From a virus (Duplodnaviria; Heunggongvirae; Uroviricota; Caudoviricetes): DNA of 64,000 nucleotides. The stretch is taken from IMG/VR virus record IMGVR_UViG_3300010162_000009; one strand, given 5' to 3'. Positions 22,552-41,700 of the stretch are shown here, in pieces (the first letter of the stretch is position 1; each line of letters opens with the position of its first letter). The translations under genes and the position numbers were made by a program. The notes below the pieces were generated by a model that saw only the letters and a program-made list of their open reading frames with translations, was not told where the DNA came from and did no database searches.

Positions 22552-22566
22552 TCAAATTTTAATGAT

Positions 22567-23231: not shown

Positions 23232-23244
23232 ATTTATATATAAC

Positions 23245-23760: not shown

Positions 23761-23764
23761 ACCA

Positions 23765-23971
23765 ATGGAAGATACTATTGAAAAACTGGATCAAGATATT
23801 ATGGTTGCTGACAAGCAACTCGAAATAGAAAAGAATATGTTTGCATATACTATTTTACATCATGGTCTAGGTAACAATATGAAGAAGGAATTAGAAAAAC
23901 CACTTTCAAAACGTAAAGTATTTGCATGGAAAATAAAAAACTTTTTTTATAATTTTTTTAGAACAATATGA
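23765..23971 (+). CDS. Hypothetical protein
   Basis: Start re-called to ATG 23765; 68 aa. Confidence 0.65.
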   Translation: MEDTIEKLDQDIMVADKQLEIEKNMFAYTILHHGLGNNMKKELEKPLSKRKVFAWKIKNFFYNFFRTI

Positions 23972-24315: not shown

Positions 24316-24673
24316 TTTAACACAAGATATTTTAAAAATCCTTCCTTTGGTAAAAATAACAAACAACGAAGAATGGAAAAACCATGTAATTGTTTCAGGT
24401 GACTTGTTCTGGGGTGGAACAGTTATTGAAAATATTATGCAAGCATGGGGTAAATTCGATGAACATATTCCGGGAACAGACTTGTTGGAAGAGGGTAGAA
24501 TGTGGGATATGGAATTGGAAAAAAATGCGTGGGATACATATGAATATATTTGTAATAATCTTTCAGATATTATTAGTATAATATTTTATACCCTTCCGAA
24601 TGTAAAAGAAGGTGTATATACAAGAAAATCAAGAACACCCGGTATATGGGAGTTCAAAGAGTTTGAAAAATAA
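24302..24673 (+). CDS. Hypothetical protein
   Basis: Start re-called to ATG 24302; 123 aa. Confidence 0.7.
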   Translation: MVKINLTQDILKILPLVKITNNEEWKNHVIVSGDLFWGGTVIENIMQAWGKFDEHIPGTDLLEEGRMWDMELEKNAWDTYEYICNNLSDIISIIFYTLPNVKEGVYTRKSRTPGIWEFKEFEK

Positions 24674-24695
24674 GTTTAATCAAAAATAAATAAAA

Positions 24696-26396
24696 ATGAG
24701 CGATGATTATGTAAATTTTTCTGAGGTATTGGAATACATCAGATATGGGTTGGATAATGATTTAACCGCATATCAAACAGCACAACATTTTGGTAAGTAT
24801 AATAACTTCTTTTATGATTATATTAGGAGAGGCGGCGCAAAATCCCTTTCAAAGGGGTCAATAACAGAAGAACAGTATAGAGAACTTCTTGATTTGTATG
24901 AAAAATTAAAAAAGAATGTAAATAAAAATTTTTCACAAAATAAAAATACGGATTATAATAACATCCCACCAGAATATATATCAATAGTTGGTGAACTACC
25001 ATCTGATGTTATTGAAAGTAAAATTTGTCTGGAAGAAGATCCGGAAGAAGATTCCGAAGTTTATGGTATCGCAAAACGTGATGAAAACAACAAAATAACT
25101 CATTACGAATTTTCAATAAGAGGTCGGCGAAAAGAACTTATAAAAGGAACAATTTCCAGAGAAATAATGAATGAAATATTCTTATTATATACCAAAGAAT
25201 CTGGAAACCTTACACAAAGAACAGTAGCACGTGAACTTCTTAATGAACTCAACCTCGATTTTTTCGGTTTTCAGAAAATTCTGAAAGTATTCGCCATTAC
25301 TAAAGCAAGCATTCCAGTTGCTTTTCACGTACTTGAAGAGCAAGATGTGAATTACATTTTAGAAAAATTATATAGAGAAAAAGAAAAGAATTTCTTTAGA
25401 AAACTCGAAGAAACCAGATATAGAAGACTTGAAGATGTAAATCTGAAACTGTTGGAAGAAAATAAAAACCTTAAAGGTTACATCAAAAACACACAAAACT
25501 TTTTATCTCAAATTGATTTCACTAAAATTAAACCATTTGATATAAACGAAGACAACATGTCTTTTGGAAGCAATAAAGCACTGTGTCTTTTTATTGCCGA
25601 CACACACTTTGGCGCAATGGTTGATCAAAATGAAAGTCTATATGATAATGATTATACCATTAAAGAGGTTGAAAAAAGATTTATGACTATCGTTGAAAAG
25701 GTATGTGAAATATCAATGTCGTTATCAGGGTTGGATAGATTAATGATATTTAATTTGGGTGATTTACTTGATGGTGATAAAAATCAAACAGCGAGAGGCG
25801 GTCATTTTCTACCACAATATTTAACCGGCAGACAACAATTCAATTTTGGTGTTTCGTTAATGCAGAGGTTTGTTGATACATTATATTTAAAAAATGTTGC
25901 TAATAAAATTGATTATCTTTCTGTCGCTACTTCTAACCATGATGGTACATTGGGATATGCTGCTTCACGTCTTTTGGTTGAGTATTTCAGAGTGAAATAT
26001 CCCGGAATGTTAGCAACGGTAAGTGAAAAATTTATCGACTGGGTGAAATATGGTGAACATATTATTATGTATTCACATGGAAAAGACCAACAGTTTATGA
26101 CAAAAAATTACCCATTGGTAATAAACAGCGATTTTGAAAACAAAATTAATGAGTTCATTGACTATCATCTCCCAGATGTTTCACACAATAAAAATATTAT
26201 GTTCATAAAGGCGGATTTACATACTTCCGCTACCACATACGGAAAGAAATTCAAATATCGCAGCGTAGGTAGCGTGTTCGGTTCTTCACTGTATTGCCAA
26301 TTGAATTATGGTAACTCTACACCTGTTTGTGAATATTCAGTTATTGACCATGACGATAAATCATTCCAGCAGGATGGTAGAATAATTTTGGTTTAA
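24696..26396 (+). CDS. Calcineurin-like metallophosphoesterase with long N-terminal extension
   Basis: ADTHFG, NLGDLLDG, SNHDG, SHG and DLH motifs in canonical order in the C-terminal half. Confidence 0.8.
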   Translation: MSDDYVNFSEVLEYIRYGLDNDLTAYQTAQHFGKYNNFFYDYIRRGGAKSLSKGSITEEQYRELLDLYEKLKKNVNKNFSQNKNTDYNNIPPEYISIVGELPSDVIESKICLEEDPEEDSEVYGIAKRDENNKITHYEFSIRGRRKELIKGTISREIMNEIFLLYTKESGNLTQRTVARELLNELNLDFFGFQKILKVFAITKASIPVAFHVLEEQDVNYILEKLYREKEKNFFRKLEETRYRRLEDVNLKLLEENKNLKGYIKNTQNFLSQIDFTKIKPFDINEDNMSFGSNKALCLFIADTHFGAMVDQNESLYDNDYTIKEVEKRFMTIVEKVCEISMSLSGLDRLMIFNLGDLLDGDKNQTARGGHFLPQYLTGRQQFNFGVSLMQRFVDTLYLKNVANKIDYLSVATSNHDGTLGYAASRLLVEYFRVKYPGMLATVSEKFIDWVKYGEHIIMYSHGKDQQFMTKNYPLVINSDFENKINEFIDYHLPDVSHNKNIMFIKADLHTSATTYGKKFKYRSVGSVFGSSLYCQLNYGNSTPVCEYSVIDHDDKSFQQDGRIILV

Positions 26397-26447
26397 CTTT
26401 TTTTCTCGCTATTTATTATTAAAATAACATAAAAAAAAGTTAAAGTT

Positions 26448-26624
26448 ATGAGACCAGAAGAAATGCTTGAAGATCAATTTCAAAGTGTTAATATAACACA
26501 CCTGAGAAAAATGGTAAAGAAAAATTTGGATGAAAACGTAAGATGTTGCAAATTTGATGAAGATTTAACAGGCGAAATTTATCCAGTTGGACCAAAAGAA
26601 GTAGTTGAAGAAGAACCGGTGTAA
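26448..26624 (+). CDS. Hypothetical protein (58 aa, below track cutoff)
   Basis: MRPEEMLEDQFQ...VVEEEPV; fills the gap, TATTTATT upstream, terminator downstream. Confidence 0.65.
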   Translation: MRPEEMLEDQFQSVNITHLRKMVKKNLDENVRCCKFDEDLTGEIYPVGPKEVVEEEPV

Positions 26625-26650
26625 CCAACGAAGCAACCAACAAATAATCA

Positions 26651-26689
26651 AAAAAATAATTATTCCATTTTATTGGAATAATTTTTTTG
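26651..26689 (+). terminator. Intrinsic terminator-like hairpin
   Basis: ATTATTCCA/TGGAATAAT stem followed by a T-run. Confidence 0.6.
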
Positions 26690-26713
26690 TTTTAAAATAA
26701 TATTGTAACTTTT

Positions 26714-26995
26714 ATGTGTAATAATAATTTTTTTACTATGTGTGAAATAGATACAAAAAAATGCTGTAAAGAAAGTGGTTGTAAGGATTCCACTTTTTCA
26801 TTAGAGGGGGATTCCGGAGAACTTTACGTAGACGAAGGTGTTTATAAAGAAATAACGCTTCTCGAACCGTTATATACCGCAGATGATTCCGCTGTCGGAC
26901 TGTCATTACACTCAATAGACAGAACGGAAAAACATGAAACTTTTAATAAATTTTTGAATAAAAATGTAAAAATCACCATTTCAATACAGGAATGA
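26714..26995 (+). CDS. Hypothetical protein
   Basis: 93-aa ORF. Confidence 0.7.
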   Translation: MCNNNFFTMCEIDTKKCCKESGCKDSTFSLEGDSGELYVDEGVYKEITLLEPLYTADDSAVGLSLHSIDRTEKHETFNKFLNKNVKITISIQE

Positions 26996-26996
26996 T

Positions 26997-27317
26997 ATGT
27001 TCAATCGAAAGTGGTTAAAGGAAGAAGTAGAATTAAATTCAGAAAAAATACATTCTATTCTAAAATCATATTTTGATGAGAATTGTATATCATCTGGATT
27101 GACTCAGGTTGAGTTGGATAAGGTTTCGTGCTTATTTACAAGTAAGTTATTAAACACCCCTGATTGTGTTAATAAAAATTCTCGTGTTTTAACATATAAT
27201 AATATTTTTGATATATTATTAACCGTTTATGATTCCATTAAAGACGATGATGATGAATTAACGGTTGAATGTTATAAAATCACACAATTTTTTTATGAGC
27301 AATCTGTCCCAAAATAA
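26997..27317 (+). CDS. Hypothetical protein
   Basis: 106-aa ORF. Confidence 0.7.
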   Translation: MFNRKWLKEEVELNSEKIHSILKSYFDENCISSGLTQVELDKVSCLFTSKLLNTPDCVNKNSRVLTYNNIFDILLTVYDSIKDDDDELTVECYKITQFFYEQSVPK

Positions 27318-27323
27318 CTCCAT

Positions 27324-28511
27324 ATGGCAACACAACCCATCAAGAAACACATACTTGAGAACAATCCGTATATTCAACAACATGCTGAAACAGAATATAT
27401 ATTAATTGTTGATGGGAACGGATTGTTAAAAGGTAGTATGATAGAAACCCTAAAAAACCCTAATGGTGTTAGGATTGGGTGGGTTATGAATTTTTTATGG
27501 AAAATAAAAATCTTATTACATAAACGATCATTTTCAAAAGTATTTTGTGTATGGGATGGACAAAATAGTGGTATATTAAGATATGACCTATATCCAGACT
27601 ACAAGAAAGTTAGAAAAAAAAACTATTCCGAATATGATAGAAAAATTAACGCTTTTGTGTTTTCTGTATTGGAAAGAGAAAGATTAAAAAAGGAAGAATT
27701 AGAAAAACAAAAAAACAAAGAAAAATTTCTTCAAACCCAACAAGTAAAGGAACAACAAAACGAAGATTTTGAAAAAACAAAACTTGTTATACAAGAATTG
27801 TTGGAATATTTATTTATTCGTCAAATACAAGACGATGTAGAAGGTACAGAAAGCGATGATATTATCGCCCACATAGTATTAAATAAACTTCCAAACCAAA
27901 AAATATATATCATAACAGGCGATAGAGATATACACCAACTCATTTCAGAAGATGTTGCAATATACAACTACAAGAAAAAAGAAGTATATCATACCGGTAA
28001 CTATATGGAAAAATTAGGAATGCCGGTAGAAAATGTATTAATCGAAAAAATTCTACGTGGTGATACTTCCGACAGTATAAGCGGTGTAAAAGGTTTAGGT
28101 GAAGTAACAATAAAAAAATATTATCCAGAATTATATTCTAATATAATTACTATTGAAAAAATAGTTGAAAAAACTAAATTACTATTAAATGAAACTTCCA
28201 ATAAAAGGGAGTTAAATGTGTTTAATGAAATATTAAAAGAATATGAAGATGGAACTCTTGATTTGAGAGAAAAAATCATTAATCTAAAAAAACCCTTATT
28301 AGGTAAACAAATAAGGGATGAACTGAACGATCTAATAGATTCTCCTCTAGACCCTAATGACAGAGAATTTGATAATGTTTATCAAATAATACTTAGAGAA
28401 GAATTAACAGATCTGCAAGGAAACAAATTTAGTTCGTTTTTCATCCCATTTAAACAAGTTATCGAAAGGGAAAAATTATTTTATAAAAAAAGTGGTTACA
28501 CTGAAATATAG
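27324..28511 (+). CDS. rnh: 5'-3' exonuclease / flap endonuclease (T4 RNase H-like)
   Basis: LIVDGNG, CVWDG, ESDDIIA, ITGDRD and H3TH GDTSDSISGVKGLG motifs. Confidence 0.9.
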   Translation: MATQPIKKHILENNPYIQQHAETEYILIVDGNGLLKGSMIETLKNPNGVRIGWVMNFLWKIKILLHKRSFSKVFCVWDGQNSGILRYDLYPDYKKVRKKNYSEYDRKINAFVFSVLERERLKKEELEKQKNKEKFLQTQQVKEQQNEDFEKTKLVIQELLEYLFIRQIQDDVEGTESDDIIAHIVLNKLPNQKIYIITGDRDIHQLISEDVAIYNYKKKEVYHTGNYMEKLGMPVENVLIEKILRGDTSDSISGVKGLGEVTIKKYYPELYSNIITIEKIVEKTKLLLNETSNKRELNVFNEILKEYEDGTLDLREKIINLKKPLLGKQIRDELNDLIDSPLDPNDREFDNVYQIILREELTDLQGNKFSSFFIPFKQVIEREKLFYKKSGYTEI

Positions 28512-28540
28512 TCAAAGTGATAATTTTAATTTAATTTGTT

Positions 28541-29206
28541 ATGGAAAATTTAGTCATTAACAAAAGAGACAAATCGCCTCAACCTCAAAAAGAAAATTCT
28601 TCGTATGTGAAATACGATTATTCTTTCGAGTTAAAAATCAATAACGACATTATATGTCAAAGATATTTTAATATCAACAAATTCAACCAAGTTAGTTTGA
28701 AAAGTATAAACTTCAAAGAATATTTTGATGATATTTGTGATATTATTCAGAAGGATCTGGAAAGTAAAACAAGAGTTTATTTATACAGCGTTTGTTGTAC
28801 ATTTGCCAGCGAAGATAAATTGAAGGCAAAACAACAAGTCGGTCAAAACAAAAGTGAATTGTATGCACCATCATATGACGAATTTAGTCCTGATTATGTG
28901 AATAATGATAAGAATGATATTACATTTTCATTTTTATATAAGGATGAGGTTATTATGTCAAGAATATGGGATGGAAACACTTATCCACTATATATCCGAA
29001 AAAACATTGATATAGTAAATAATCAGTGGATACAAGTTACACCAACACAGCGTATTTATTTTTCAGACTGTGATGAGGATCGTCTTAAATATGAACAAAC
29101 AATAAAAAAGAAAGTCTTTCAAAATAGAAAAGATTTAATACCACAAATAATCACGTTGTTCAGGGAGGTGTGTTCAATGGAATCCCGTGATTACAAATTC
29201 TATTAA
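28541..29206 (+). CDS. Hypothetical protein
   Basis: 221-aa ORF. Confidence 0.8.
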   Translation: MENLVINKRDKSPQPQKENSSYVKYDYSFELKINNDIICQRYFNINKFNQVSLKSINFKEYFDDICDIIQKDLESKTRVYLYSVCCTFASEDKLKAKQQVGQNKSELYAPSYDEFSPDYVNNDKNDITFSFLYKDEVIMSRIWDGNTYPLYIRKNIDIVNNQWIQVTPTQRIYFSDCDEDRLKYEQTIKKKVFQNRKDLIPQIITLFREVCSMESRDYKFY

Positions 29207-29208
29207 AA

Positions 29209-29454
29209 ATGGATATTCTCATCCAAGTACTTATATTCGTTTTTGGGGTGTCTTCCATATTTTTGGTTGGTTGTCGTAATGAAAAATATAGAAGGTGGGG
29301 ATATGTTACTGGTTTAACAGCACAACCTGTCTGGTTATATTGGGCAGCATCAACAGAATCATGGGGAGTTTTCCTAATGGCGTTATTCTATGCGTATTCT
29401 TGGGCAAGAGGTGTTTATAACTTTTTTATTGTAAAACCCAAAAAAGATGAATGA
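29209..29454 (+). CDS. Small three-helix membrane protein, half-PnuC-like
   Basis: Three hydrophobic segments; WGYVTGLTAQPVWLYW. Confidence 0.5.
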   Translation: MDILIQVLIFVFGVSSIFLVGCRNEKYRRWGYVTGLTAQPVWLYWAASTESWGVFLMALFYAYSWARGVYNFFIVKPKKDE

Positions 29455-29755
29455 TAGTGCGGAAGATAAACAATATGTTGTCTGCCCTGATAAAGAATGT
29501 AAAGGGTTTTGGTCAGAAGACAACGAAGGATTTCTTTGTGACGGTAAATGTCCAAAGGATTGTCAGTTCTATATAATTTGTCCAAACTGCAAACATAAGA
29601 TATACTTCGATCCAAAGTACATTTCAAAACTTCAACGAATAGAATGTAATAATCAAATACCACACCCAACACTTGATGAAAAATACCGTTGTGGGTGTTG
29701 TATTTTTACCAGAATATCATCATCAACTTATAATCTCACTTATCATGAAGACTAA
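29447..29755 (+). CDS. Cys-rich zinc-binding protein
   Basis: CPDKEC, CDGKCPKDC, CPNC, CGC. Confidence 0.7.
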   Translation: MNDSAEDKQYVVCPDKECKGFWSEDNEGFLCDGKCPKDCQFYIICPNCKHKIYFDPKYISKLQRIECNNQIPHPTLDEKYRCGCCIFTRISSSTYNLTYHED

Positions 29756-29972
29756 AACAAAAAAGTGTAATAGATGTAAAAAATCCATTGAGGGTATTGC
29801 AGTAAATGGAGATGGAATGATTCAATGCCGAAATTGTTATTGGTGTAACCTCGAATTTGAACATGATAAAAACATCGTAGTAAATTACACAAAATTTGTA
29901 GATTTGTTGCAGGAATTACTACCTCAATTGAATCCAACAGGAATTGATGAAACCATTAAGACTTTACAGTAG
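29745..29972 (+). CDS. Small zinc-ribbon protein
   Basis: Start re-called to ATG 29745; CNRC...CRNC. Confidence 0.6.
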   Translation: MKTKTKKCNRCKKSIEGIAVNGDGMIQCRNCYWCNLEFEHDKNIVVNYTKFVDLLQELLPQLNPTGIDETIKTLQ

Positions 29973-30141
29973 GGTTTTTCGCAAACCCCCACTTTCTTTT
30001 AACTTTACTGTAAGGGCGCAACCTGAATAACTTTTTGATGCTGTTAGTTACGTTATACCACATGAATACTGGTATCATACATACCATATAAACTGCTGCA
30101 AATACCGCAAACACTAATATAAGGATTGAATTTGTAATCAT
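29956..30141 (-). CDS. Small membrane protein
   Basis: Hydrophobic N-terminus, basic tail; TATTTATA 14 nt upstream on the minus strand. Confidence 0.6.
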   Translation of the reverse strand: MITNSILILVFAVFAAVYMVCMIPVFMWYNVTNSIKKLFRLRPYSKVKRKWGFAKNPTVKS

Positions 30142-30164
30142 ATTTTTGTTTCTGCTATAAATAG

Positions 30165-30175
30165 CGATCAGAATT
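30165..30175 (+). promoter_or_regulatory. (T/C)GATCAGAA motif
   Basis: Variant copy 55 nt upstream of ATG 30220. Confidence 0.45.
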
Positions 30176-30219
30176 TTTTTTATTTTTTATATTAAGAACA
30201 TATTTAAAATAAAAAAGTA

Positions 30220-30417
30220 ATGAATAACATTTGGAAGATATTATTAGGGATTGTAGGTGTAATGCTTATTATTTTTGCGCCGATTATTGGAATAATTGTA
30301 TTTTTATTTCTAATCGGACTATTGTTGAAAGTAACATTTAATATAATTAAATATGTTGCCTATGCAGCAATATGTTTTTTTATAATATGTTTTATTGTAG
30401 GATTGTTTGTATCATAA
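30220..30417 (+). CDS. Small membrane protein
   Basis: Almost entirely hydrophobic 65 aa. Confidence 0.7.
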   Translation: MNNIWKILLGIVGVMLIIFAPIIGIIVFLFLIGLLLKVTFNIIKYVAYAAICFFIICFIVGLFVS

Positions 30418-30430
30418 AAAGTTGAAAGAT

Positions 30431-30622
30431 ATGTATTTAATTATTCCAGAAAACAAAAACAAAGGGGCGAAGATAACCGGCGGCGGATTTGACACCGAAC
30501 TCGCTCTTGATGTACAAAAAGGTTATACACGTGTATTTGATATTACAGATACATGGGAAGTCAAAGAGTTAGTAGTATATTCAACCGAACATTACTCGTG
30601 GGTAAAGGTTGAAATGTTGTAG
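30431..30622 (+). CDS. Hypothetical protein
   Basis: Start re-called to ATG 30431; 63 aa. Confidence 0.6.
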   Translation: MYLIIPENKNKGAKITGGGFDTELALDVQKGYTRVFDITDTWEVKELVVYSTEHYSWVKVEML

Positions 30623-30632
30623 TAAAAAATTG

Positions 30633-30708
30633 TAGCCGATGGGGGACTCCAACCCAAACCATCCTTCGATCCGTAGTCGAAAATTCTATGCTGTTAAACT
30701 AATCGGCC
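30633..30708 (-). tRNA. tRNA-Arg(ACG), atypical
   Basis: GGCCGAT/ATCGGCT acceptor and TTCGA-CTACGGA-TCGAA anticodon arm; D and T loops non-canonical; CCA not encoded. Confidence 0.65.
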
Positions 30709-30716
30709 ATATGTTT

Positions 30717-31001
30717 TTATATTGTTGTATTAAACTTACATGTATGATAGTTTGGTGTTATATCTACATATGTGGTTGTATAATATACTACCGGAACCTC
30801 TGGTATTTTAAGCTCCTCTAAAATCCTCCAACTCTTCATCGTATCTTTGGTATCCCACATTACTTCACCAGTTATAATGTTTCTGTATTTGACAGCGGTT
30901 TCGGATATTTCGATAATAACAACTTCAAATACAACACCCTCTCTTCTTCCTTTTAGTAAGTATCGTTTTCCTACTTGTAAATCCAATTCTTTAAAATCCA
31001 T
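30717..31001 (-). CDS. Hypothetical protein
   Basis: 94-aa ORF upstream of tRNA-Arg on the same strand; TAnnTTTG upstream. Confidence 0.7.
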   Translation of the reverse strand: MDFKELDLQVGKRYLLKGRREGVVFEVVIIEISETAVKYRNIITGEVMWDTKDTMKSWRILEELKIPEVPVVYYTTTYVDITPNYHTCKFNTTI

Positions 31002-31020
31002 AAAAATTACGTATTATTAT

Positions 31021-31028
31021 CAAAAATA
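31021..31028 (-). promoter_or_regulatory. Bacteroidota-type -7 box TAnnTTTG
   Basis: Minus strand reads TTATTTGTATATTTTTG, about 20 nt upstream of start 31001. Confidence 0.5.
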
Positions 31029-31043
31029 TACAAATAAATATGA

Positions 31044-31054
31044 TGATCAGAAAA
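31044..31054 (+). promoter_or_regulatory. TGATCAGAAAA motif
   Basis: 53 nt upstream of ATG 31097. Confidence 0.55.
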
Positions 31055-31096
31055 TTTTTATAAACTTTTATTACAGTAAAATTAAATTTTAATAAA

Positions 31097-31360
31097 ATGA
31101 TAAAATATAATAGTTGGAGTTCAGAAGAAGATAATCTCTTGATAGAATTGTACGGTAAGTTTTACAGAATACAAGATATCCCTATCAAATTTGAACAGGT
31201 GGGATATAAAAGAAGTGTGTCATCTATAAACCAACGTTTAGTTACACTTAGACGATTGGGAAAAATAGAGAAGAGACCAAGATTTTCACCAGACGGATGG
31301 AGACCTTTTGTGTTACCATCTGTAAAAACAGAAGTTGTTGATTGTTTCAAAAAAGTATAG
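31097..31360 (+). CDS. Small Myb/SANT-like HTH protein
   Basis: WSSEEDNLLIELY...RSVSSINQRL. Confidence 0.6.
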   Translation: MIKYNSWSSEEDNLLIELYGKFYRIQDIPIKFEQVGYKRSVSSINQRLVTLRRLGKIEKRPRFSPDGWRPFVLPSVKTEVVDCFKKV

Positions 31361-31531
31361 TAAAATGAGTAAGTTAAAAATCAAACCTATTCACGTTGGA
31401 ATTTTCTTTATCCGGAATTGTCAAGAAGACCCCCACTTTTAAGTGGTTTTTGCTACTATCGTAATGGTAGGTGGGGCATGTGCGATACTATTTGGAATAA
31501 CAGGAAAAAAGTAGTCTATTTAAAAATATAT

Positions 31532-31603
31532 TGTGGGGTGATGCAGTGGCAGCAATTTGGGCTCATAACCCAAAAGTCGTAGGTTCGAATCCTACCCCCG
31601 CTA
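31532..31603 (+). tRNA. Initiator tRNA-fMet(CAT)
   Basis: 1:72 mismatch, three consecutive G-C pairs in the anticodon stem (TTGGG-CTCATAA-CCCAA), canonical TTCGAAT loop; CCA not encoded. Confidence 0.9.
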
Positions 31604-31610
31604 CAAAGTT

Positions 31611-31622
31611 GTTCTTTGACAT
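31611..31622 (+). promoter_or_regulatory. boxA-like antitermination element
   Basis: GTTCTTTGACAT in the tRNA-tmRNA spacer resembles the rrn boxA (E. coli TGCTCTTTAACA, Firmicutes AGTTCTTTGAAA). Confidence 0.55.
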
Positions 31623-31624
31623 AT

Positions 31625-32012
31625 GGGGTCGTTAGGTTTTGATTGCAAATTAGTATGGTAATCAACTCATGTGGTGCAGTCTGTAACACCTAAAAACAGA
31701 CAAACAAATGAGAGGCAATAGTAATATTTCTTCTGTGGAATACGCACTTGCTGCGTAGTTAGGTTATTTGAGTAAGGTCAGTTGTAAAAATTTGTCCTAA
31801 TAAAGACACTGAGTATCTATGCTTGGAAACAGAAAATAGTAAATAGCATCTATGCTTAAAATAGAGGTTTGGGTTTGTTTCAGTTCCACTCCACAGTCTG
31901 GCTGGAAAGTTAATACTGAAAAACAGTTGCCAATTGAGTAAAAATCGGATAAAACATGTAAAAGTTATTATTTGAACATATGCAAGACACAGCTTCGATG
32001 CTGTCGACTCCA
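31625..32012 (+). ncRNA. ssrA: tmRNA
   Basis: GGGGTCG/CGACTCC-A acceptor with G3-U70; T-arm ACAGC-TTCGAT-GCTGT; tag frame 31714-31758 = (A)GNSNISSVEYALAA*. Confidence 0.92.
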
Positions 32013-32020
32013 CAATATCT

Positions 32021-32085
32021 ACGAATGTAGGTTGGTTTGGAAGCAGCCATTCCTTTAAAGTGTACAGTAATCTGTCCGCATTTGT
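32021..32085 (+). ncRNA. 23S rRNA H43/H44 (uL11-binding domain)-like RNA
   Basis: AGGTTGGTTTGGAAGCAGCCATTCCTTTAAAG matches 23S about 1057-1087; hairpin with GTAATC loop matches H44; own closing stem ACGAAT/ATTTGT. Confidence 0.75.
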
Positions 32086-32093
32086 AGTTTTCA

Positions 32094-32168
32094 GGTCCTT
32101 TAGCTCAGTTGGTGCAGAGCATCTGACTCATAATCAGGGGGTCGGGGGTTCAAGTCCCTCAAGGACCA
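32094..32168 (+). tRNA. tRNA-Ile2(CAT, lysidine type), elongator Met not excluded
   Basis: Canonical cloverleaf GGTCCTT/AAGGACC-A; anticodon arm TCTGA-CTCATAA-TCAGG; C4-G69 and C5-G68 as in Ile2. Confidence 0.85.
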
Positions 32169-32185
32169 CTAAAATTTTAAATAAT

Positions 32186-32740
32186 ATGAAAAGGGTAGTT
32201 AGACCAGAGTGTTTTGAAACAAATAGCAGTAGTGTTCACAGTTTGTCGGTAATATCAAAAAGTAGCGCAAATGTTTTGTGTGAGTTGGTAAAAGACAATG
32301 TACTTTATCCGGATGTTTTTTATAATACGGTAAAGCGTTTTCATGGGGATCATGGAATAGATTATATCTACGATGAAGGTAAGAGGTGGTATGCTGTTAC
32401 CAGAGATGAAAAAGCGGCGTTGTTGTTTTTGTATCTGAATTACGTAAAACTTGCATTTGAAGGAGATACAGATTTCGCCAGCGACTCCTTTGATGAAAAT
32501 ATGATTTTAAATGCTATTGAAATAGCAGAGGAATTATTACCATATGATAGCATACATTTTGGTGAAAATTCAATATCACCTTTTCAGGAAGATAAGGGTG
32601 AAATGATAATCAATATTGGTGATGTTCTTAGCAAGTATGGTTCTAAAGACCAAAAGGAATTAGAAAGAATTATCGGTGAGTTTTGTACGCTCATATTAGA
32701 TGATGATAAAATTCTTGATTGTGTTCAGGGGGAAGGTTAA
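32186..32740 (+). CDS. FETNSSS-motif protein 2
   Basis: Start re-called to ATG 32186 (track start lies inside RNA genes): MKRVVRPECFETNSSSVHSLSV. Confidence 0.85.
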   Translation: MKRVVRPECFETNSSSVHSLSVISKSSANVLCELVKDNVLYPDVFYNTVKRFHGDHGIDYIYDEGKRWYAVTRDEKAALLFLYLNYVKLAFEGDTDFASDSFDENMILNAIEIAEELLPYDSIHFGENSISPFQEDKGEMIINIGDVLSKYGSKDQKELERIIGEFCTLILDDDKILDCVQGEG

Positions 32741-32751
32741 TTTTAAATAAA

Positions 32752-32994
32752 ATGGGTTTAGAAGAAGAATTAAGAGTAGAGTATAATACTCGTAGTAGAA
32801 GAAACAACACAATTAAGTTTGTGTTAGGAGATAAGAATGTCAGTGAAATGACATTGAGAGAATATTTTGCCGGGGTTGCGATGAGCGGATCTTCGGCGAT
32901 TGATGGGGCAGACGATGTTAATAGTATTGCTACATGGTCAGTAAGAATGGCGGATGCGTTGTTGGTGGAACTTGAAAAACCTGTAAAAATTTGA
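32752..32994 (+). CDS. Hypothetical protein of the widespread phage MTLRDYFA family
   Basis: MTLREYFAGVAM...ADALL; start re-called to ATG 32752. Confidence 0.7.
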   Translation: MGLEEELRVEYNTRSRRNNTIKFVLGDKNVSEMTLREYFAGVAMSGSSAIDGADDVNSIATWSVRMADALLVELEKPVKI

Positions 32995-32998
32995 AATA

Positions 32999-33319
32999 AT
33001 GATTATAGTAACAGAAAACGGATTGTACGAAGTTTACAGTCAAAATAATGATGGTAGTAATTTCTATTATTTATGCAAAGAAATACTCACACACAAACTT
33101 CACGAAGGTGATACGAAGTTTGTTGCTAGGGGGATACCAAAACCAATCATATTGGGGGTTCCTGACGGTTTGGATAGACACCGCCCATATTTTATAAACA
33201 AAGAAGAAATTATTTTTTTCTTTGATGAAGGTAAAGATGATAAACGATCAGCACTTTCGGAAATGGCGTATAAAAACTGGAAGGAATTTTTTCCGGAATT
33301 ATATTTCGTCGTTAAATAA
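32999..33319 (+). CDS. Hypothetical protein
   Basis: 106-aa ORF. Confidence 0.7.
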   Translation: MIIVTENGLYEVYSQNNDGSNFYYLCKEILTHKLHEGDTKFVARGIPKPIILGVPDGLDRHRPYFINKEEIIFFFDEGKDDKRSALSEMAYKNWKEFFPELYFVVK

Positions 33320-33349
33320 TAATAGCGTTGCGTTCAAATAAATAATAAC

Positions 33350-33754
33350 ATGAAAAAAGTAGTTAGAAAAGCGGTTTTTGAAACCAACAGTAGTAGTGTA
33401 CACAGTATAAGTATTGTACCTGAAAAGATATATAATTTATTCAAGACAGGACAATTACTTTGGGATAGAGATAAAAAGGTATTAGTAGAGTTGTCGTCTA
33501 TACCACAACTTGAACCATCAACCATATGTGGTGTGTGTGGTAAACAGTTCAACGAAGGGGATAACTTTTGTTCCAGTTGCGGAGAAAGAATTGACATGGA
33601 ATATCGAATCAAAGTTTTAACGGATTCCAAATATAATTCTTATGATAATTTTGGGGTATCAAATGGTAGAAGTTATGAAACCTTTGAACACAAACACACA
33701 ACAGAGTTGGGAGAAACTCTTGTTGCGTTTGGATATTATGGATCCGATTATTGA
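33350..33754 (+). CDS. FETNSSS-motif protein 3 with zinc ribbon
   Basis: MKKVVRKAVFETNSSSVHSISI; CGVC...FCSSCG. Confidence 0.85.
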   Translation: MKKVVRKAVFETNSSSVHSISIVPEKIYNLFKTGQLLWDRDKKVLVELSSIPQLEPSTICGVCGKQFNEGDNFCSSCGERIDMEYRIKVLTDSKYNSYDNFGVSNGRSYETFEHKHTTELGETLVAFGYYGSDY

Positions 33755-33777
33755 AAATTTTTTAAAAAAATAATAAC

Positions 33778-34704
33778 ATGAAAAAAAGAATTTTATTAGG
33801 ATCATATGTTAACGGAAACACCTCTGTTGAAATTTACGATGACGGTACAAAAATCCGCACTACGGAGGATGATGAGTTCATTTCGGAGTTTCCAGAGTCG
33901 ATAGATCTAAAAATTACAAATGTCTGTGACAGAGGTTGTTTATTCTGTCACGAGGACTCAAAACCGAATGGAAAACACGCGGATATTCTTAATCCGAAGT
34001 TTTTGGAAACAATTAGACCATATAGCGAGATTGCGATTGGCGGTGGCAATTTATTGTGTCATAATGATATAGAAGAGTTCTTAACAAGGATGAGAGAACA
34101 GAAAGTCATTTGCAATATCACAGTAAATCAACAGCATTTCATGGAAAGTTATGGTAGGATTAGATTATGGTCTGAAAGTAAAATGATATACGGAATAGGA
34201 GTCTCATTAGATTATAATAACCCTGTTTCATCGGAATTTATTGGTATGATACAATCATTACCGAATGCTGTTATTCATATCATTGAGGGGGTAATTTCTC
34301 GTGAACAAATGTTTGGTTTGACCAATAAGAGATTGAAAGTCTTGATACTTGGTTACAAAATGCTTCGTCGTGGCATGAAGTACTTTGACGAAAAGGTATT
34401 GGAAAATAAAAAATGGTTAAAAGAAACAATAGCGGTTTATATCAATAGCAGTATGTTTCAGAACATATCCTTTGACAACTTGGCAATTGAGCATCTTGAA
34501 ATCAAAAAGATATTACCGGAAGAATTGTGGAATGAGTTCTATATGGGCGATGACGGACAACATACCATGTACATTGATTTAGTGAATAAACAATATTCAA
34601 GATCAAGTACATCCACATTACGTTTTGATATTACAGATGATATTGTGGAAATGTTTTCGGTTGTTAAATCTGATGAACATCAATGGCATATGTTAATGTA
34701 TTAA
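33778..34704 (+). CDS. Radical SAM enzyme
   Basis: CDRGCLFCH (CxxxCxxC), IAIGGGN, NITVN; no C-terminal Cys-rich SPASM domain. Confidence 0.9.
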   Translation: MKKRILLGSYVNGNTSVEIYDDGTKIRTTEDDEFISEFPESIDLKITNVCDRGCLFCHEDSKPNGKHADILNPKFLETIRPYSEIAIGGGNLLCHNDIEEFLTRMREQKVICNITVNQQHFMESYGRIRLWSESKMIYGIGVSLDYNNPVSSEFIGMIQSLPNAVIHIIEGVISREQMFGLTNKRLKVLILGYKMLRRGMKYFDEKVLENKKWLKETIAVYINSSMFQNISFDNLAIEHLEIKKILPEELWNEFYMGDDGQHTMYIDLVNKQYSRSSTSTLRFDITDDIVEMFSVVKSDEHQWHMLMY

Positions 34705-34716
34705 TTTTTTAATAAT

Positions 34717-35268
34717 ATGAAAAGAGTAGTTAGAACAGGGGTTTTTGAAACCAACAGCAGCAGCATGCACTCAATAAGTATCAATGGTAGTGATATGATA
34801 TTGAAATCTGAAAGAGAATATATTTTCCCTTTAAGTGAAGATTTTATTGTTCCGACAGATGATTCGGATATAATAATAATACCATTGGAAGATTGTGAGT
34901 ATGGTTGGGGATATGAATACATTACAGATCCGTTTGAAAAATTGAAATATCTTGTGATGATGGTTGTAGAAACCGAATGTAAGAATGTTACATGTATTAA
35001 CGAAATATATGAAACAGAAGGATTCAAATTAATTCAGGCGGAAGTACCACACACTATTGTAATTCTTGATGATTCGTTAGAACAACACTCGTACACCAAC
35101 AAGGAAAATGATGTTGTGTATTATTTATCTCACAGCGGATATATAGATCATCAAAGTCACGAGGATTTTTCAAGTCTGCAAGATTTTTTGAATGATGCAG
35201 ATGTTAATGTAGAAGAATTTTTATACAATAAACAACTTGCAGTTATCATGGATAACGATAACCACTGA
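34717..35268 (+). CDS. FETNSSS-motif protein 4
   Basis: MKRVVRTGVFETNSSSMHSISI; YGWGY..EKLKYL, GYIDHQS, terminal DNDNH. Confidence 0.85.
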   Translation: MKRVVRTGVFETNSSSMHSISINGSDMILKSEREYIFPLSEDFIVPTDDSDIIIIPLEDCEYGWGYEYITDPFEKLKYLVMMVVETECKNVTCINEIYETEGFKLIQAEVPHTIVILDDSLEQHSYTNKENDVVYYLSHSGYIDHQSHEDFSSLQDFLNDADVNVEEFLYNKQLAVIMDNDNH

Positions 35269-35276
35269 TCAGAAAA
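35266..35276 (+). promoter_or_regulatory. TGATCAGAAAA motif
   Basis: 50 nt upstream of ATG 35316; its TGA is the stop codon of the preceding gene. Confidence 0.55.
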
Positions 35277-35315
35277 TTCTTTTTCTTTTATTTTTCAACC
35301 AAATTTTAAAAGGAA

Positions 35316-35750
35316 ATGAAAAAGGTAAAAAAGTGTTATGTAGTTGAAAAATATTTAACCGATGAGGAATGTCCACCTCTTTACATATTAGGTATTTATA
35401 GTACCTCAGAAAAAGCAATAGAGGCAACAAGAACAGCGGTAAAAGAGTTAAATTCATGGGTTGATGATTTACCAATACCATTAGATTTTTTCATTGAACA
35501 TATTAATGAACTTGATATGAGAGATGATCATCATTATCCTTTTCATTTTTTTTGGAAAAATTATTTAGGGTATACTGAAAAAGATTGGCAAGAAACTTAT
35601 TGTTTATATTACAGACGTAGTTATCTTGGTAGATTGTCCGTTTCTGTTTCGGAAAGGTATATGGATGAATATACCGAAGAGTGGGGAGAACGATTTTTTA
35701 CTGAGATAATCGAACCAATCGAAAAAATCAAAGGTTTGGAAAGTCGTTGA
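35316..35750 (+). CDS. Hypothetical protein
   Basis: 144-aa ORF, convergent overlap with the polyvalent protein gene. Confidence 0.75.
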   Translation: MKKVKKCYVVEKYLTDEECPPLYILGIYSTSEKAIEATRTAVKELNSWVDDLPIPLDFFIEHINELDMRDDHHYPFHFFWKNYLGYTEKDWQETYCLYYRRSYLGRLSVSVSERYMDEYTEEWGERFFTEIIEPIEKIKGLESR

Positions 35751-38700
35751 TGAACGGAAATATAGCAGTATCAGAATTAGCAATTTTTGCGGTACCATAA
35801 AGATATTTACCCTTTCTAATAGCATCTAAATATCTTGTTACAGAATTTTTTCCTAAAACAATATATGTTTGTCCAGAAAGCGTAAATTTTCTATCAGGAA
35901 TATCTTTTACTACACCTTTTATTGTTTTTATATTAATGTAACTACCGGTTTCTGGTGGTAATTCTAATATATAATAAAGGTTTTTTATTTTGTTTTTTAT
36001 ATCATTGATTACTAATGTCACATTTTCCCCATTATAAATATAGTTGCGAATAATATAGAAAGACCAATGATCTGAACCTCTTGTAGCATATTTTGATTCT
36101 TCACATGGTGGCGTTTGAAAATATTCTGAAGGAAGTGTTTCTCCTCTCTTAGAAGATACTTGGTAATAACAAACTAAATTATCGTTATCATCATACCATT
36201 CAACAACAGTTCCGGTTTTATCAAATCTATTTGTTTTACTATACACACAATTACTCATATAATCAGGTGCACCATTAGGATCATAGTTAAATATGTAAAT
36301 ATCATTTTCTTTTTGTTCATCATACGGTATTTGAAGTACCTCATTTAATATTTTTCTTATTCTATCCACACCCTCAGTTAACATTGTCTGTTCTACTTGA
36401 ACATTTTCCAATCTTTCCGGGATTTCGATATATATTTCATTTTCAGAAAAATTATTACCATTGAAACTAGTTTCATTAGTGTTATCTTCTATGTATCTAC
36501 TAATGGTTTCTACCCAATCAACAGCATCAAATGGACAATCTGCCTTTAATATAGTATTACCCGAATTTCCCCATATAGAATCTCTGAAACGAACAGCACT
36601 ATCATGACTGAAAGACCATGAATTACCTAACAACTCATCTCTTTTAATATCTGATAATTTATCTACTCTTATACTACGCCATACAGGAAACGGATTTTCA
36701 AATTTAGCAAAATATTGACATATAGAAAGTATTTTTGTTATCATTTGTTTTTCACTCTCAAATGGATAGTTACCATCTTCATCACCATTATCGTCATCAG
36801 AACCAGGATATAAACCATCATATGGTCCGGTATTTCTAATATAATCAATAACATCTTCTACTGTTATTCCTAATTTATTTATAGATTGAATAACATCCAC
36901 TTGTCTTTCGGACATTATAAACCTTTTTGGTTTACTATTTTTTGATTCTGCAAGATTATTATCTTCTATTTGATTTCCATTTAAGTCAAAGACAATTCTC
37001 TCATTTTTATAATCATTATAATAACCAGACATGCTTTTGTAAACAATATATTTGTTTTTTATATCATCTGGTAAAATATCATAATATTCTATTGGAATTA
37101 TTATATTGTTGTTTTTATCTATCACACCTTTTCTTTTACTTTCATCGCTAACAAAATAAACATTGAAGTTATTATAAGGCTCTATTCTATTATATATAAA
37201 TGGAATTATAACATTTCCTTTTACATCAACAACCCCTCTTTTTCCGTTACCATCCAAACTTATAAATTCACCTGGTGTTAAACCATCAGAGTATTTAGAA
37301 TACCCAAATGGCTTTATAACTTCATTATTTAAATTTATTATTCCCTCTTTATTTAAGTCATTTCTTACACGATAAGTATTATCTTTTTCCGGTAGAACGC
37401 CGAGATACTTTATTGGAATAACTATCTCACCGTTTGAATCGAGTACCCCAACAAGATTATTTTGTTTTACACGATACATACCATTTGAATCATATACAAT
37501 CGTATCGTATTCTGGTGGTATTTTAATACTAGTTTTTAGATTTATAATACCAACCTTATCTGTTCGTTGTTTTACGCGAAACAACATACCCTCTACGTCA
37601 ATATTTTCTATTTCTGAATAAATTAGAGGAATAATTTCCTCATCATTTATGTCTATAACACCCTTCCCTTCATTACCGTGTACTATAAATTTATTACCAC
37701 CTATTGGTATTATATCATCATAATACGATGTGAGTTCTTCTTCTTGTCCATTAATAATAACATAACCATCATCATTACTTACCAAATATGTGTTATTATA
37801 TAATAGTTCAATACTACTATATGCATCATAAAAAATTGGTGCACCATTAACATCTAAAAGCATCGCACTATCATTATATTCTCCTGAAACCACAAATGTC
37901 CCGTCTTCAAGTTCAGATATATTATCATATGATAAACCTAACATTTTTTTAACACCAACTCTTTCTTCAAAGAAATCAAATAAACCGCTTGTAGCATTAA
38001 TTTCATCCATAACAGGTTTATATATACTTTCATCAGTTTCATCCATAAATTGCTCACTTTCAAAATGGAATTGATATTTTTCATTGTATCTTTTACCTAT
38101 TACAATGTAAAGAGGACCATTTTTATTGTAATGGTCAAACATGTTATTATTTTCAGCAGCAGTACACCACTGTGTCCCTTTACCATAATATTTTGCCGCC
38201 TCTTCTGTTTTAGGATGAATCACAACAAAGGCATCATCCTCATATAATTTATCAGCACCCTCAACTTTTGTGTGTTTTATTTCTTCACCTTTTGAAGCAA
38301 ATTCTTCACCTTCTAAATAGGGTCTAATAACCGAATATAAACTACTTAATGATATATGTGAATTAATATTATTATTTTCTAATTTACCGGATTTCGATAA
38401 TTTGTCAAATACAGGTAGATATTCTTTTGCTTTGTATAAATCTTCTAATTTTAGTTGTGATTTAACTCTTTTTTTGTCTGTGTATAACCACAACAACCAT
38501 TTTGCATATTTACCCAACTTATCTCTATCTAAATTTGTTGTAACTGTGTCGGCAGAGGCAATCTGTTTGAAAACATCTTCTGGAATATCAGGATAATATG
38601 TTTTATGAATATCCTTTGCAGACATTTCAAACAAATAGTTATAATCTTCACCTACTACTTCTTTAACTAACGATTCTACTGTTCTAAAACGCCCTGACGT

Positions 38701-41700
38701 ATGAGCAATCGCACCAAGTTTTGGTGTTATTTCCTTATCCGATTTTGCAACTTCAGTTGCCCTTCTTAATTCTTCATCAACCCATTTCATCAGTTTATCC
38801 GCCGATATTAACCATGCGTCTTTATCCTGTTCTTCACCACTCATCTGACCGGTATAATTATCTCTCCAATCAACAAGGGTGTACATCCATTTATATGTTA
38901 TTTTTCCTTTTCTTTCAATAATATTTTGAAGTCGTTTATAATTTTTACATAATGTGTATTTAGAAACATCTTTAACTTTATCATATTTAGATTTCAGTTC
39001 AAAATATAATTCTTCTGGTATTTGAAATGTTCTATGTTTTAATTTTTGATTATCTTCGGATACTATTTCACCTATATTAATATCATCACCATTTCTTGCC
39101 GCTAATTGTTGCAGGTGTTGATCAACCAATTTTTTTTGCTCTTTACCTGTTTTGAATAAATCAGGTGCTAATTTTTGAGTTTCGTTAAAAACCATATCTT
39201 GTATATAGGTTTTACTTTCCATTGCATTTCGTGTTAATACATTTCTGGTAGTAATAACGTTTGATAGTTTTTCCATCATATCACGTAGTTCCATTCTTTG
39301 TGCACCAGACATACCAGACTGGTCTACTTGGTCTAATATAAAGTTATAAATATAAACCTTACTTCTCTGTGTTGTTAACCTTGTTTTAATAATATTTGCA
39401 GCATCATTTATTTTTCCAACGTATTGACTAATAAAACTCAAATTCACACTAGTATCACCAAGAATATACTTCAATATCAAAAAACTCTCAGTAGCACCTT
39501 TTGTTTTGTTATTAATAACATCAATAAGTAAATCAATTTTATGTTCATCTATTTCTTCCATTCTATCGTCAGGATCAGCATTATCATCATCTTCTTCAAA
39601 GGAAATATCGCGCAAGGTATCTGCATTATCGGCAGCGGTTTTTTTCTGTTGTTTAAGAGGTGATAATTGAATTTCATTCAAATAATCTTGAATGGTATCT
39701 TTAATTGTATTTTCATGCGTTTTTTTTAAACCATCTTCACTTTTTTTCCAATTTTCAATATATTCGTTAATAGTATCTCCTCTTATTGGTAATCTTAAAT
39801 CTTCATCAAAAAAACTATTATCTCTTGAATTGAAAATTATATTTTTTTCTTTTGATCCAATATAACGAAAATTATCATATTTAACTTCATAAAAACGACA
39901 TTTATAATCACAATTTTCCTTATTATTTCTATAATCATAAGAATTAGTAATACGTATGGGTTTTACCGTATCAAATAGAAATTTTCCATTTGGATCAATT
40001 ATATTATCACAATTATCTTTTACGTTTCTACATAATGTATAACCATACTTATCCGTATCTGGTGTTTCATCATGATTTTCAAACGGAATCCAGTTATTAA
40101 ACATCATTGTTCCATCTGTTTTTCCAATATTATATGTTTTGTCTAAAAAAAGAATAAACGTTTTACTTACTTCATTATATCCACTATGTGATGTAAACCC
40201 ATGTTCATATTCAGGAAACAACAAAGAATAACAACCGCTGTTCGGATCAATAATATTACCCTTATCATCGCCAATTAGAACATTAAAACGTTTATTTTTA
40301 TAAACAATCCACCATACTTCATCTAACCCTTTTATTCTATTTAATCGTATATCACCATGATATAGATCATCTATTTTAAAAAGTTCATTCAAATTATCTT
40401 CTCTAAAATATTTTAATTTTTCTTTTTTAATGTGTAATTCTTCTTCTGAATATGGTTTAAAGACACTATAAAAATTTCTACCAATCAAATCACTTATCTG
40501 CTCCGTGTTCATACTATTGTCGTTTCCCCCATTGTCATGGTTATATCTTGTCGTACAAGTGTTCAGCGAACCATCATCGTTAATACCAACCGCAATCATA
40601 CTTAATCCATAATCATCTAATGGATTACCCTCCTCTTTACTTTCTTCACCAATGTTTTCCCAACCCTCGTTTAATAGAAAATAAAATCGACCCAAACCGT
40701 CTTTGGTGTATGTGTTATAGTTATTTTCAGATTGAGCAACACACCATGGTGCATATTCATAATATTCACGAGCATCTTCATAACTGTCAATGGGGATTAT
40801 TGTGTATCTATTGTTTTTATCATTATATCGTTTTTGATTTATTTTATTTTTATCTGTTTCCAAATGTTGTTGACCAACTGTTTGAAAACGATTAACCAAT
40901 TCTTCTGCTGATAAACCATTCAAATCTTCGTTATAATCATCATGCCCTTCTAAAAATTTTAATGATTTATTTAAATCGTTAATTATAGTATAATCTTTTA
41001 GTTGATTAGATACATACATTCTCACAATTCCTAACATGTATTTACATTCTGCAACTCTGGAATTAGAAATGTTAGTTCTAATATTATCCAGAATTCTCTG
41101 TGTTTGTTCTTGAGACATTTCATGAACATCTTTAAGGTATTTTCTTGCTTTGGATAGGTTTTTACTTTCTTTACTTTCGGACAATATATCTTTAACAATG
41201 TCAGAAATTTTTAATGTGGTTTCATCTAATGTTTCTTCATTCATTTCTATACCTATTTTGTATTTTTCACTACCGGGTTCCGCACTACCTATTACACCAT
41301 GGTATGGACTGATTACTGAACTTAATTCTATAATATTTTGTTCTGCTAACGATTTGTAAAAATATATTGCTTTTCGTTGTTTTTTATTTTTATGTGAATT
41401 TAGCCACACTTTGAATATTTCAATATCTACTTCGGTTATATATTTAAATCCATTCCACCCTTTTTCATAATTTGATAAATATGCTTTTTTTGCTTCTTTT
41501 GAATTATTGAAACCCATCATAACTTTGGTTTCATCAAATTCGTTTCCTTTGTATTGGTCAATACAGAATATTTTATCAGAATCAAGATTATCACCAATAA
41601 AAACATCAACAGCATCACCATCTATCGCTTTACTTTGGACAAAATAACCATATGTGTTATTCATCTTGGTTTTCCATTCCCTACCAGTGTCGTCTACTCC

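Follow-up and report, generated by a model that had tools for sequence, protein, structure and literature searches.

A cassette of RNA genes in a large phage

The window, the whole 64 000-nt stretch of DNA that was analysed, corresponds to positions 7150–71149 of an IMG/VR record (G000) of 135,149 bp with a G+C content of 31.5%. CheckV estimated this record to be 37% complete, which suggests that the phage genome is probably ~350 kb. A compact RNA-gene cassette was located on the plus strand of the window between 31532 and 32169; this consists, in order, of a tRNA(CAU), a tmRNA, a 65-nt element resembling the GTPase-associated centre (GAC) of 23S rRNA and a second tRNA(CAU). The first tRNA has the hallmarks of an initiator (a U1xU72 mismatch and a GGG/CCC anticodon stem) and the second has a paired 1:72, indicating an elongator Met or Ile2 type. 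The tmRNA, which was missed by ARAGORN, contains a tag frame reading GNSNISSVEYALAA and then a stop codon, the tag ending ...VEYALAA. The GAC-like element starts 5 nt past the end of the tmRNA match and finishes 8 nt ahead of the second tRNA, and no terminator-like site was found between the RNA genes of the cassette. A preliminary description of this DNA had placed the element between two tRNA-like processing units, and it does sit between two units of the RNase P type, the tmRNA and the tRNA-Met(CAU).

The next gene after the cassette encodes a 184-aa protein of no known family (32186–32740, plus strand). Two further open reading frames overlapping the cassette, one of 32060–32740 with a GTG start and one on the minus strand at 31759–32013, were rejected as by-products of ORF listing, the real downstream gene starting at 32186. 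The 184-aa protein has a paralogue elsewhere in the window (P0007), and in the genomes of related huge phages (contigs of 270–370 kb; P0002, P0005 and P0010) its family is present as multiple copies. No GAC copy was found near the homologues of this protein. The 135-kb record contained no LSU rRNA match or rRNA gene, and neither a uL11 gene nor any other obvious partner was found in it, at 37% completeness. Outside the window, at genome positions 78074–78148, a 75-nt tRNA with the anticodon UCA was observed in a second tRNA cluster and is a possible opal suppressor. L11 affects release factors, and a link between the element and stop-codon recoding was considered. This idea was dropped because the coding density under the standard code was already 81% and TGA ended 19 of 94 long frames; there was no sign of genome-wide recoding.

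Sequence and secondary structure of the GAC-like element

The plus-strand sequence at 32021–32085, which is exactly as previously quoted, was confirmed at the level of sequence as a free-standing copy of helices H43/H44 of 23S rRNA, equivalent to E. coli positions 1051–1108. The Rfam model LSU_rRNA_bacteria (RF02541) aligned to 32023–32083 over its positions 1092–1149 with a score of 17.6 bits (E 3.6e-4, 69-nt stretch); these 58 model positions have a consensus that reads as E. coli 1051–1108. There were zero non-standard pairs among the modelled pairs in this alignment. A covariance model (R1) that drew on four further compact copies and on seven segments of true rRNA, with the window excluded, matched the element with 53.9 bits (E 1.7e-12, all 64 kb, filters off), and the next best match scored 11.3 bits. 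The 32-nt Bacteroidota sequence for H43 and the junction matched 32029–32060 at 29 of 32 positions (3 mismatches), and a comparable match was generated by none of 100 shuffles of the window. The coordinates of the element, its parts and the associated features are presented in Table 1.

Table 1. Coordinates of the RNA cassette, the GAC-like element and the other compact copies (positions are those of the window unless a contig is given)
Feature	Position	Strand	Basis or remark
Variable island with RNA cassette	29237..35700 (approx.)		Unrelated genes replace it in L234
Initiator-type tRNA(CAU), opens cassette	31532..31604	+	ARAGORN and Rfam, 54.5 bits
Phage tmRNA	31625..32015	+	Rfam RF00023, full length (1-374), 52.3 bits (gathering score 47)
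Whole GAC-like RNA element, 65 nt, ~ E. coli 23S 1051-1108	32021..32085	+	Rfam LSU model, model R1
Closing stem, 5' strand, in place of H42 end	32021..32028	+	Pairs with 32078-32085
H43 mimic (1057-1081)	32029..32054	+	G at 1067, extra U after A1077
Three-way junction UUAAA (1082-1086), same as rRNA	32055..32059	+	Invariant in alignments
H44 mimic (1087-1102)	32060..32077	+	R1 and Rfam LSU model alignments
Closing stem, 3' strand	32078..32085	+	Complementary to 32021-32028
Second tRNA(CAU), tRNA-Met(CAU)	32094..32169	+	ARAGORN and Rfam tRNA, 70.6 bits
L027 copy, same sequence as L222	L027:8982-9050	-	102-kb record, 29% complete
L067 copy	L067:2610-2679	+	159-kb record, 22% complete
L220 copy	L220:1841-1909	+	Metagenome contig Ga0247841_10017584
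L221 copy	L221:1165-1233	+	Metagenome contig

The two ends of the element form a closing stem with the successive pairs A-U, C-G, G-U, A-U, A-U, U-A, G-C and U-G. The preliminary description had considered this to be a non-rRNA stem of 6 bp; its non-ribosomal character stands and its length does not, as seven Watson-Crick or G-U pairs and a terminal U-G give a total of eight. The sequence of the stem is unrelated to rRNA or H42 with the exception of G32027, which is equivalent to G1055, the pair G1055-C1104 being retained. An equivalent of this pair was present in all nine aligned sequences, and in ribosome structures it receives A1085 in an A-minor triple (PMC1919483). The H43 part has 3+3 pairs around an internal loop and a 9-nt terminal loop, UUGGAAGCA, at 32037–32045. 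Both this 1067 loop (UURGAAGCA) and the junction UUUAAAG are identical to those of Bacteroidota 23S rRNA, in keeping with the original observation that they had been kept, and the U1082-A1086 pair is present.

The H44 part reads, in order, G-C, bulged U, G-C, bulged U, A-U, C-G, an added A-U, G-C and a UAAU loop. Compared with the ribosomal 1095 hexaloop (G-UAAY-A), the element keeps the UAAU core and C1092-G1099, gains an A-U pair and has G-C in the place of G.A. The added pair, together with the replacement of G.A1098 by G-C, displaces the 1095 loop of the element. Position 1088 (32061) is U in the element, whereas all the other phage copies and rRNAs examined have A; the loss of A1088 that had been noted is real, and it is unique among all members seen. 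The tertiary pair U1060-A1088 is part of the U1060-A1088/1078 triad that locks H43 to H44 (PMC1919483), and the loss of one member of this triad may weaken the compact fold of the element and its affinity for uL11.

Divergence of the element preserves secondary structure

The core of the element differs from the Bacteroidota consensus by 9 substitutions and one inserted pair, and all 10 core pairs are standard. U1058G with A1080C (U-A to G-C) and G1091A with C1100U (G-C to A-U) are compensatory. C1064U converts C1064-G1074 to U-G, U1101C converts G-U to G-C and A1098C replaces the sheared G1093.A1098 with G-C. The remaining changes are C1097U in the loop, A1088U and the added A-U pair. This list of substitutions bears out the compensatory changes at 1058-1080 and 1091-1100 and the additional H44 pair recognized earlier. 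When 9 random substitutions were simulated, all ten core pairs survived in 2.2% of trials, and at least five changes in paired columns with none broken occurred in 0.06% of trials (6e-4). It follows that the divergence of the element has been filtered for secondary structure.

Covariation was assessed in an alignment of nine sequences, comprising the five compact copies and four rRNAs, fitted to the model. In this alignment 98.5% of cells were paired, both sides had changed in 6 of 15 pairs and the covariation score was equalled by none of 500 shuffles; slid registers were not close either. A model-fitted alignment leans towards the structure of the model, and the closing stems, which were checked by hand, concur with it. 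The covariation and self-closure on which the preliminary description had relied are thus upheld. Folding of the element by minimum free energy (MFE) gave a z of -1.1. True rRNA GACs scored 12–15 kcal/mol above their own MFE, making MFE folding uninformative as a test.

An ENA contig (ERZ27257295, 10.8 kb) and a Logan contig (SRR5215144, 1.8 kb) showed 100% identity with the window along 4039 and 1808 nt, respectively, with the element included in both. The neighbouring protein has also been recorded on contigs of 180 and 269 kb, and the adjacent 184-aa gene (P0001) is present in ERZ27257304 and SRR10512951 too. The agreement of two independent assemblies excludes an assembly chimera involving host rRNA, an origin that the preliminary description had wished to see addressed. 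The probability that the element is either a chance resemblance or such a chimera is considered to be negligible: the shortness of the element is all that favours it, and against it are the shuffles and the R1 E value above, flanks that consist of phage RNA genes, a sequence that is unlike every rRNA seen and the agreement of the independent assemblies.

Host-type signatures in the element

When a single genome of each prokaryote species was scanned, GGAAGCAGCCAUUCNUUUAAAG emerged, among the matches listed, as the signature of Bacteroidota 23S rRNA. The G1067 and the extra U near 1078, given in the preliminary description for Bacteroides, were the Bacteroidota 23S consensus in at least 120 genome matches, all those listed lying in a true rRNA context, and the names of these at least 120 signature loci were mostly of Bacteroidota. 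The E. coli 1057–1087 string, also quoted there, was correct in that it matched a true E. coli-type 23S fragment (L081). The element carries both of the Bacteroidota signatures, G1067 and the extra U, and among the matches listed the rRNA of Hymenobacter has the G1058-C1080 pair of the window too.

The nearest cultured kin of a neighbouring 566-aa nuclease gene are Cellulophaga phages, which have a Bacteroidota host. This kinship, together with the rRNA-type signatures that fit it, suggests that the phage probably infects Bacteroidota. The copies correspond in rRNA type to the putative host, which fits either a recent capture or selection for fit to a host protein.

A family of GAC-like RNAs in phages

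Further copies were sought with an exact-pattern scan of IMG/VR for GAAGCAGCCAU-N2-4-UUUAAAG. The scan gave 99 loci, made up of 1 true rRNA, 13 chance matches in coding DNA and 85 others. These 85 free-standing loci represent 61 distinct copies, 53 of which have a recognizable H44 piece and are split by an insert of 48–341 nt between U1090 and G1091. The order in a split copy is the 5' closing strand, H43, UUUAAAGAGU, the insert, UUUG-GCGUAAYAGC-ACA and the 3' closing strand. Although they vary between copies, the two closing strands remain complementary throughout the family. A recurrent block, CACCCCGGARACGGUAAGGC or CAGGGGAAGGACAAGUACAGUUUGUA, was seen in a number of the inserts (L003, L045 = pf16, L060, L064, L073; L007, L010, L075, L099), and the recurrence of these two blocks suggests that there are conserved sub-domains within the inserts. 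Many copies lie inside tRNA arrays (14 phage loci scanned). The element in the window has in common with this family an H43 and junction core outside an rRNA gene, a non-rRNA closing stem and a place among tRNA genes in a large-phage record.

Cultured phages are among the carriers. These include the Pseudomonas phages pf16, Astolliot and Milchi, Aeromonas phage 4_4572, Paenibacillus phage Pd_22F, Xanthomonas phage XacN1, Cronobacter phage GAP32, Pectobacterium phage CBB, Serratia phage BF, Yersinia phage fHe-Yen9-04, a Vibrio phage and Erwinia phage pEa_SNUABM_12 and its relatives. Most GenBank records of the cultured phages have no feature annotated beneath the GAC match; the copy was within an unannotated gap in three records that were examined, and in pf16 it fills the 253-nt gap from tRNA-Asn to tRNA-Pro. 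Rfam scans of the window, the 14 phage loci, L220, L221 and pf16, at both gathering and permissive thresholds, matched the GAC copies with LSU models only, and hence no named family fits them. Rfam 15 contains no family for such phage RNAs, and no description of one was found in the full-text literature, the papers on jumbo phages and ornate RNAs included. The earlier statement that no phage RNA of this kind had been described agrees with these searches. To our knowledge, a functional ribosomal RNA domain encoded as a stand-alone copy has not been known from any virus.

Only five distinct copies were free of an insert, these being the window copy and the four additional copies in Table 1. All five are of the Bacteroidota type and each has its own closing stem. 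The pair A1091-U1100 (32064/32075 in the window) is present in all five, and G-C occupies this place in every rRNA and split copy; the A-U pair may be a derived state common to these copies, or selection may have favoured a departure from the ribosomal site. At 65 nt the window copy is the smallest member of the family seen, and it is the most divergent of the compact copies. The copies in L067, L220 and L221 have no adjoining tRNAs, and within 3–90 nt downstream of each lies a hairpin that resembles a terminator and carries a U run. These three compact copies, with their hairpins and away from tRNAs, indicate that the GAC-like RNA is an independent unit.

The L220 contig looks like bacterial DNA with an integrated element. 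It was observed to carry an ABC exporter, a TsaD equivalog and, beside a tRNA, a large serine recombinase, and the GAC copy itself adjoins a gene for a 174-aa methyltransferase that is weakly similar to protein-lysine N-methyltransferases. As uL11 is a heavily lysine-methylated protein, this neighbour may deserve attention. No informative Pfam match was obtained for the ORFs of the island in the window or for the neighbours of the copies in L027, L220 and L221.

The cassette lies in a variable island

The nearest related contig examined (L234) is collinear with the window over 16784–29236 and 38647–44894, with amino-acid identities of 48–80%. No tRNA, tmRNA or GAC copy was found in this contig; the interior of the window between the collinear blocks has no counterpart there, and other genes are present instead. 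The absence of the RNA cassette from the matching site shows that the cassette, and the element with it, is accessory. A 2051-aa InPase-domain gene beside the variable island is inverted relative to L234.

No GAC copy was found in the parts searched of a more distant relative, a 360-kb contig (L236), or of the nearest INPHARED record, MT835492.1. None was found in a further contig of 67% identity (L235), which ends short of the matching site. Protein-pattern scans of IMG/VR returned no close phage relatives. The preliminary description had named a lack of homologues in related phages as grounds for refutation, and this applies in part: the nearest relative is without a copy. Many unrelated phages do carry homologues.

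Proposed function of the element and alternative explanations

The 58-nt domain 1051–1108 is the complete high-affinity binding site of uL11 and also binds thiostrepton, and the kink-turn of H42 is required by the uL10 stalk. The compact copies appear from their sequences to keep the minimal uL11 domain only, made up of H43 and its loop, the junction together with the pair that receives A1085, and the loop of H44, with H42 and its kink-turn replaced by arbitrary stems. The targets put forward for a decoy in the preliminary description were uL11/uL10, the translational GTPases, RelA-type sensing or an rRNA-targeting defence nuclease, all of them putative. Since the domain is its complete high-affinity site, uL11 is the prime candidate for a ligand. 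The conservation of the 58-nt module, the arbitrary stems in place of H42 and the match to host-type rRNA lead us to favour, tentatively and with slightly less than even confidence, a role as a trans-acting decoy of a ligand of the GAC, with uL11 as the first candidate.

The expression, processing, tertiary fold, binding and host effect that follow are those we infer for such a decoy. The element would be a small-RNA gene, co-transcribed with the tRNA-fMet-type gene, the tmRNA and the tRNA-Met(CAU), and, to judge from its position, an RNA of ~65–80 nt would be released by the processing enzymes of its neighbours. RNase P, cutting at 32093/32094, would define its 3' end, and its 5' end would be freed when the tmRNA is trimmed at the 3' side. 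Once released, the RNA would fold like the GAC of host 23S rRNA, with H43, the three-way junction, H44 and a generic stem replacing H42. It would act in trans as a free copy of a ribosomal site, binding a factor that normally recognizes the GAC. Capture of free or exchanging uL11 may thereby alter how host ribosomes handle translation GTPases, release factors and RelA during infection. The loss of A1088 weakens the case that the window copy folds and binds like the ribosomal domain.

Several other explanations have to be weighed against the decoy of a GAC ligand. The element may be a passive piece of captured host 23S rRNA, serving as a stable hairpin spacer or as a processing or stability module with no function in trans. 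The tight fit between two processed RNAs, the absence of the element from the nearest relative and the loss of A1088 would all be consistent with such a passive element; however, its divergence preserves structure, each copy has evolved a different closing stem and there are stand-alone copies with terminator-like hairpins away from tRNAs. The unpaired loops and the junction, which would be needless in a spacer, have been kept exactly, and we consider a passive element to be improbable. It is very doubtful that the RNA is instead a direct bait for EF-G, IF2, RF3, BipA, HflX or RelA-type alarmone synthetases that acts without uL11, by which the availability of a factor would be tuned or the stringent response blunted. 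The 1067 and 1095 loops, which the factors contact on the ribosome, are the best conserved parts, and among 59 inserts of the family there is one convincing case of a motif like the sarcin-ricin loop (L023). However, the binding of these factors to the GAC is weak when the sarcin-ricin loop, stalk proteins and remainder of the 50S subunit are missing; such inserts are rare, and no mimic of the sarcin-ricin loop was found in the 65-nt copy or in the 135-kb record.

A counter-defence role, in which the RNA is a decoy or pseudo-substrate that sequesters or inhibits an effector, from the host or from a competitor, attacking the GAC (such as an ADP-ribosyltransferase, a nuclease or a methyltransferase) and so spares the ribosomes during infection, appears unlikely rather than remote. 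A toxin for exactly this site exists in Tre23, which ADP-ribosylates nucleotides 1095–1098 of H44 and blocks the GTPase of EF-G (PMC8661411), and an anti-phage RNA ADP-ribosyltransferase is known in CmdT (cited in PMC13768812). The differences from rRNA are clustered in H44 (U1088, A1091-U1100, the added pair and C1098), as might be expected in a bait that cannot be modified. The element is within a variable, accessory island, and the copies of other phages lie in tRNA arrays, which are discussed as a putative anti-defence system in PMC12803027. Against this, a substrate decoy would titrate a catalytic toxin poorly, and no toxin or antitoxin gene was seen near the copies. We know of no GAC-directed defence system in phage immunity.

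The decoy of a GAC ligand can be extended into a broader proposal, that large phages infecting many phyla use host-matched GAC copies as an RNA sponge, through removal of uL11 or as bait for an effector, to reprogramme the control of translation. We regard this generalization as speculative and on the whole rather unlikely. If it were true, RelA-dependent stringent signalling, for example, would be silenced, and the 65-nt copy would identify the bare core of the GAC as the active unit. Should the RNA bind uL11 or another ligand of the GAC, it would represent a new mode of phage interference with translation or with its surveillance, and would join phage tRNAs, tmRNAs and ribosomal proteins. 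The system is readily approachable, the RNA being of 65 nt with a very well-studied ribosomal counterpart and with homologues in the culturable phages pf16, GAP32, XacN1, CBB and Serratia BF. The compact host-type copies amount to a natural experiment, indicating that 1088, 1091-1100 and the length of H44 are changeable while the element is kept.

Comparison with known systems

The element can be compared with other phage-borne non-coding RNAs of cryptic role, GOLLD and ROOL. GOLLD occurs in the tRNA arrays of Mycobacterium (reference cited in PMC12286853), and one ornate RNA of the GOLLD/ROOL group was present among tRNA genes at one of the loci scanned here (L015). GOLLD and ROOL differ from the element in being homo-oligomeric cages of 400–800 nt, and have no relation to it in sequence or structure. 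Action in trans by imitating the nucleic-acid ligand of a protein, as is proposed for the element, has been either proposed or demonstrated for 6S RNA, a mimic of the open promoter that sequesters RNA polymerase, and for the phage antitoxin RNAs ToxI and pseudo-ToxI, the latter a counter-defence RNA borne by phages. The folds and the targets are different in these cases.

Imitation of an rRNA site by an RNA outside the ribosome is a property shared with the leaders of ribosomal protein mRNAs (such as the L10 leader RF00557 and the L1, L20 and S15 operators). These leaders are cis-acting, lie upstream of their own ribosomal protein gene and imitate the rRNA site loosely. In contrast, the virus-encoded element copies its site almost exactly and is upstream of no ribosomal protein gene, being followed by a tRNA and then by the gene for the 184-aa protein in a record with no L11 gene.

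The GAC of bacterial 23S rRNA and the element have the same three-way junction, UUUAAAG, 1067 loop (except for the host-type G1067) and UAAU core of the 1095 loop, as well as the G1055-C1104 pair receiving A1085. The element differs in being free-standing, 65 nt in length and phage-encoded between tmRNA and tRNA genes, with an 8-bp stem for H42, U1088, A-U at 1091-1100, an extra H44 pair and G-C for the sheared G1093.A1098. The element also resembles the split GAC RNAs of phages such as pf16, GAP32 and XacN1, with which it shares the H43 and junction core and a covarying non-rRNA closing stem. The split RNAs, which lack the extra U and have A at 1067, keep A1088 and G1091-C1100 and contain their insert of 48–341 nt, whereas the window copy has no insert and is of the Bacteroidota type. 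To the family as a whole the window adds its smallest form seen (65 nt, insert-free), a host-type version of the Bacteroidota kind, natural variants at 1088, 1091-1100 and H44, an association with a phage tmRNA and with an initiator-type tRNA, and evidence of accessory status.
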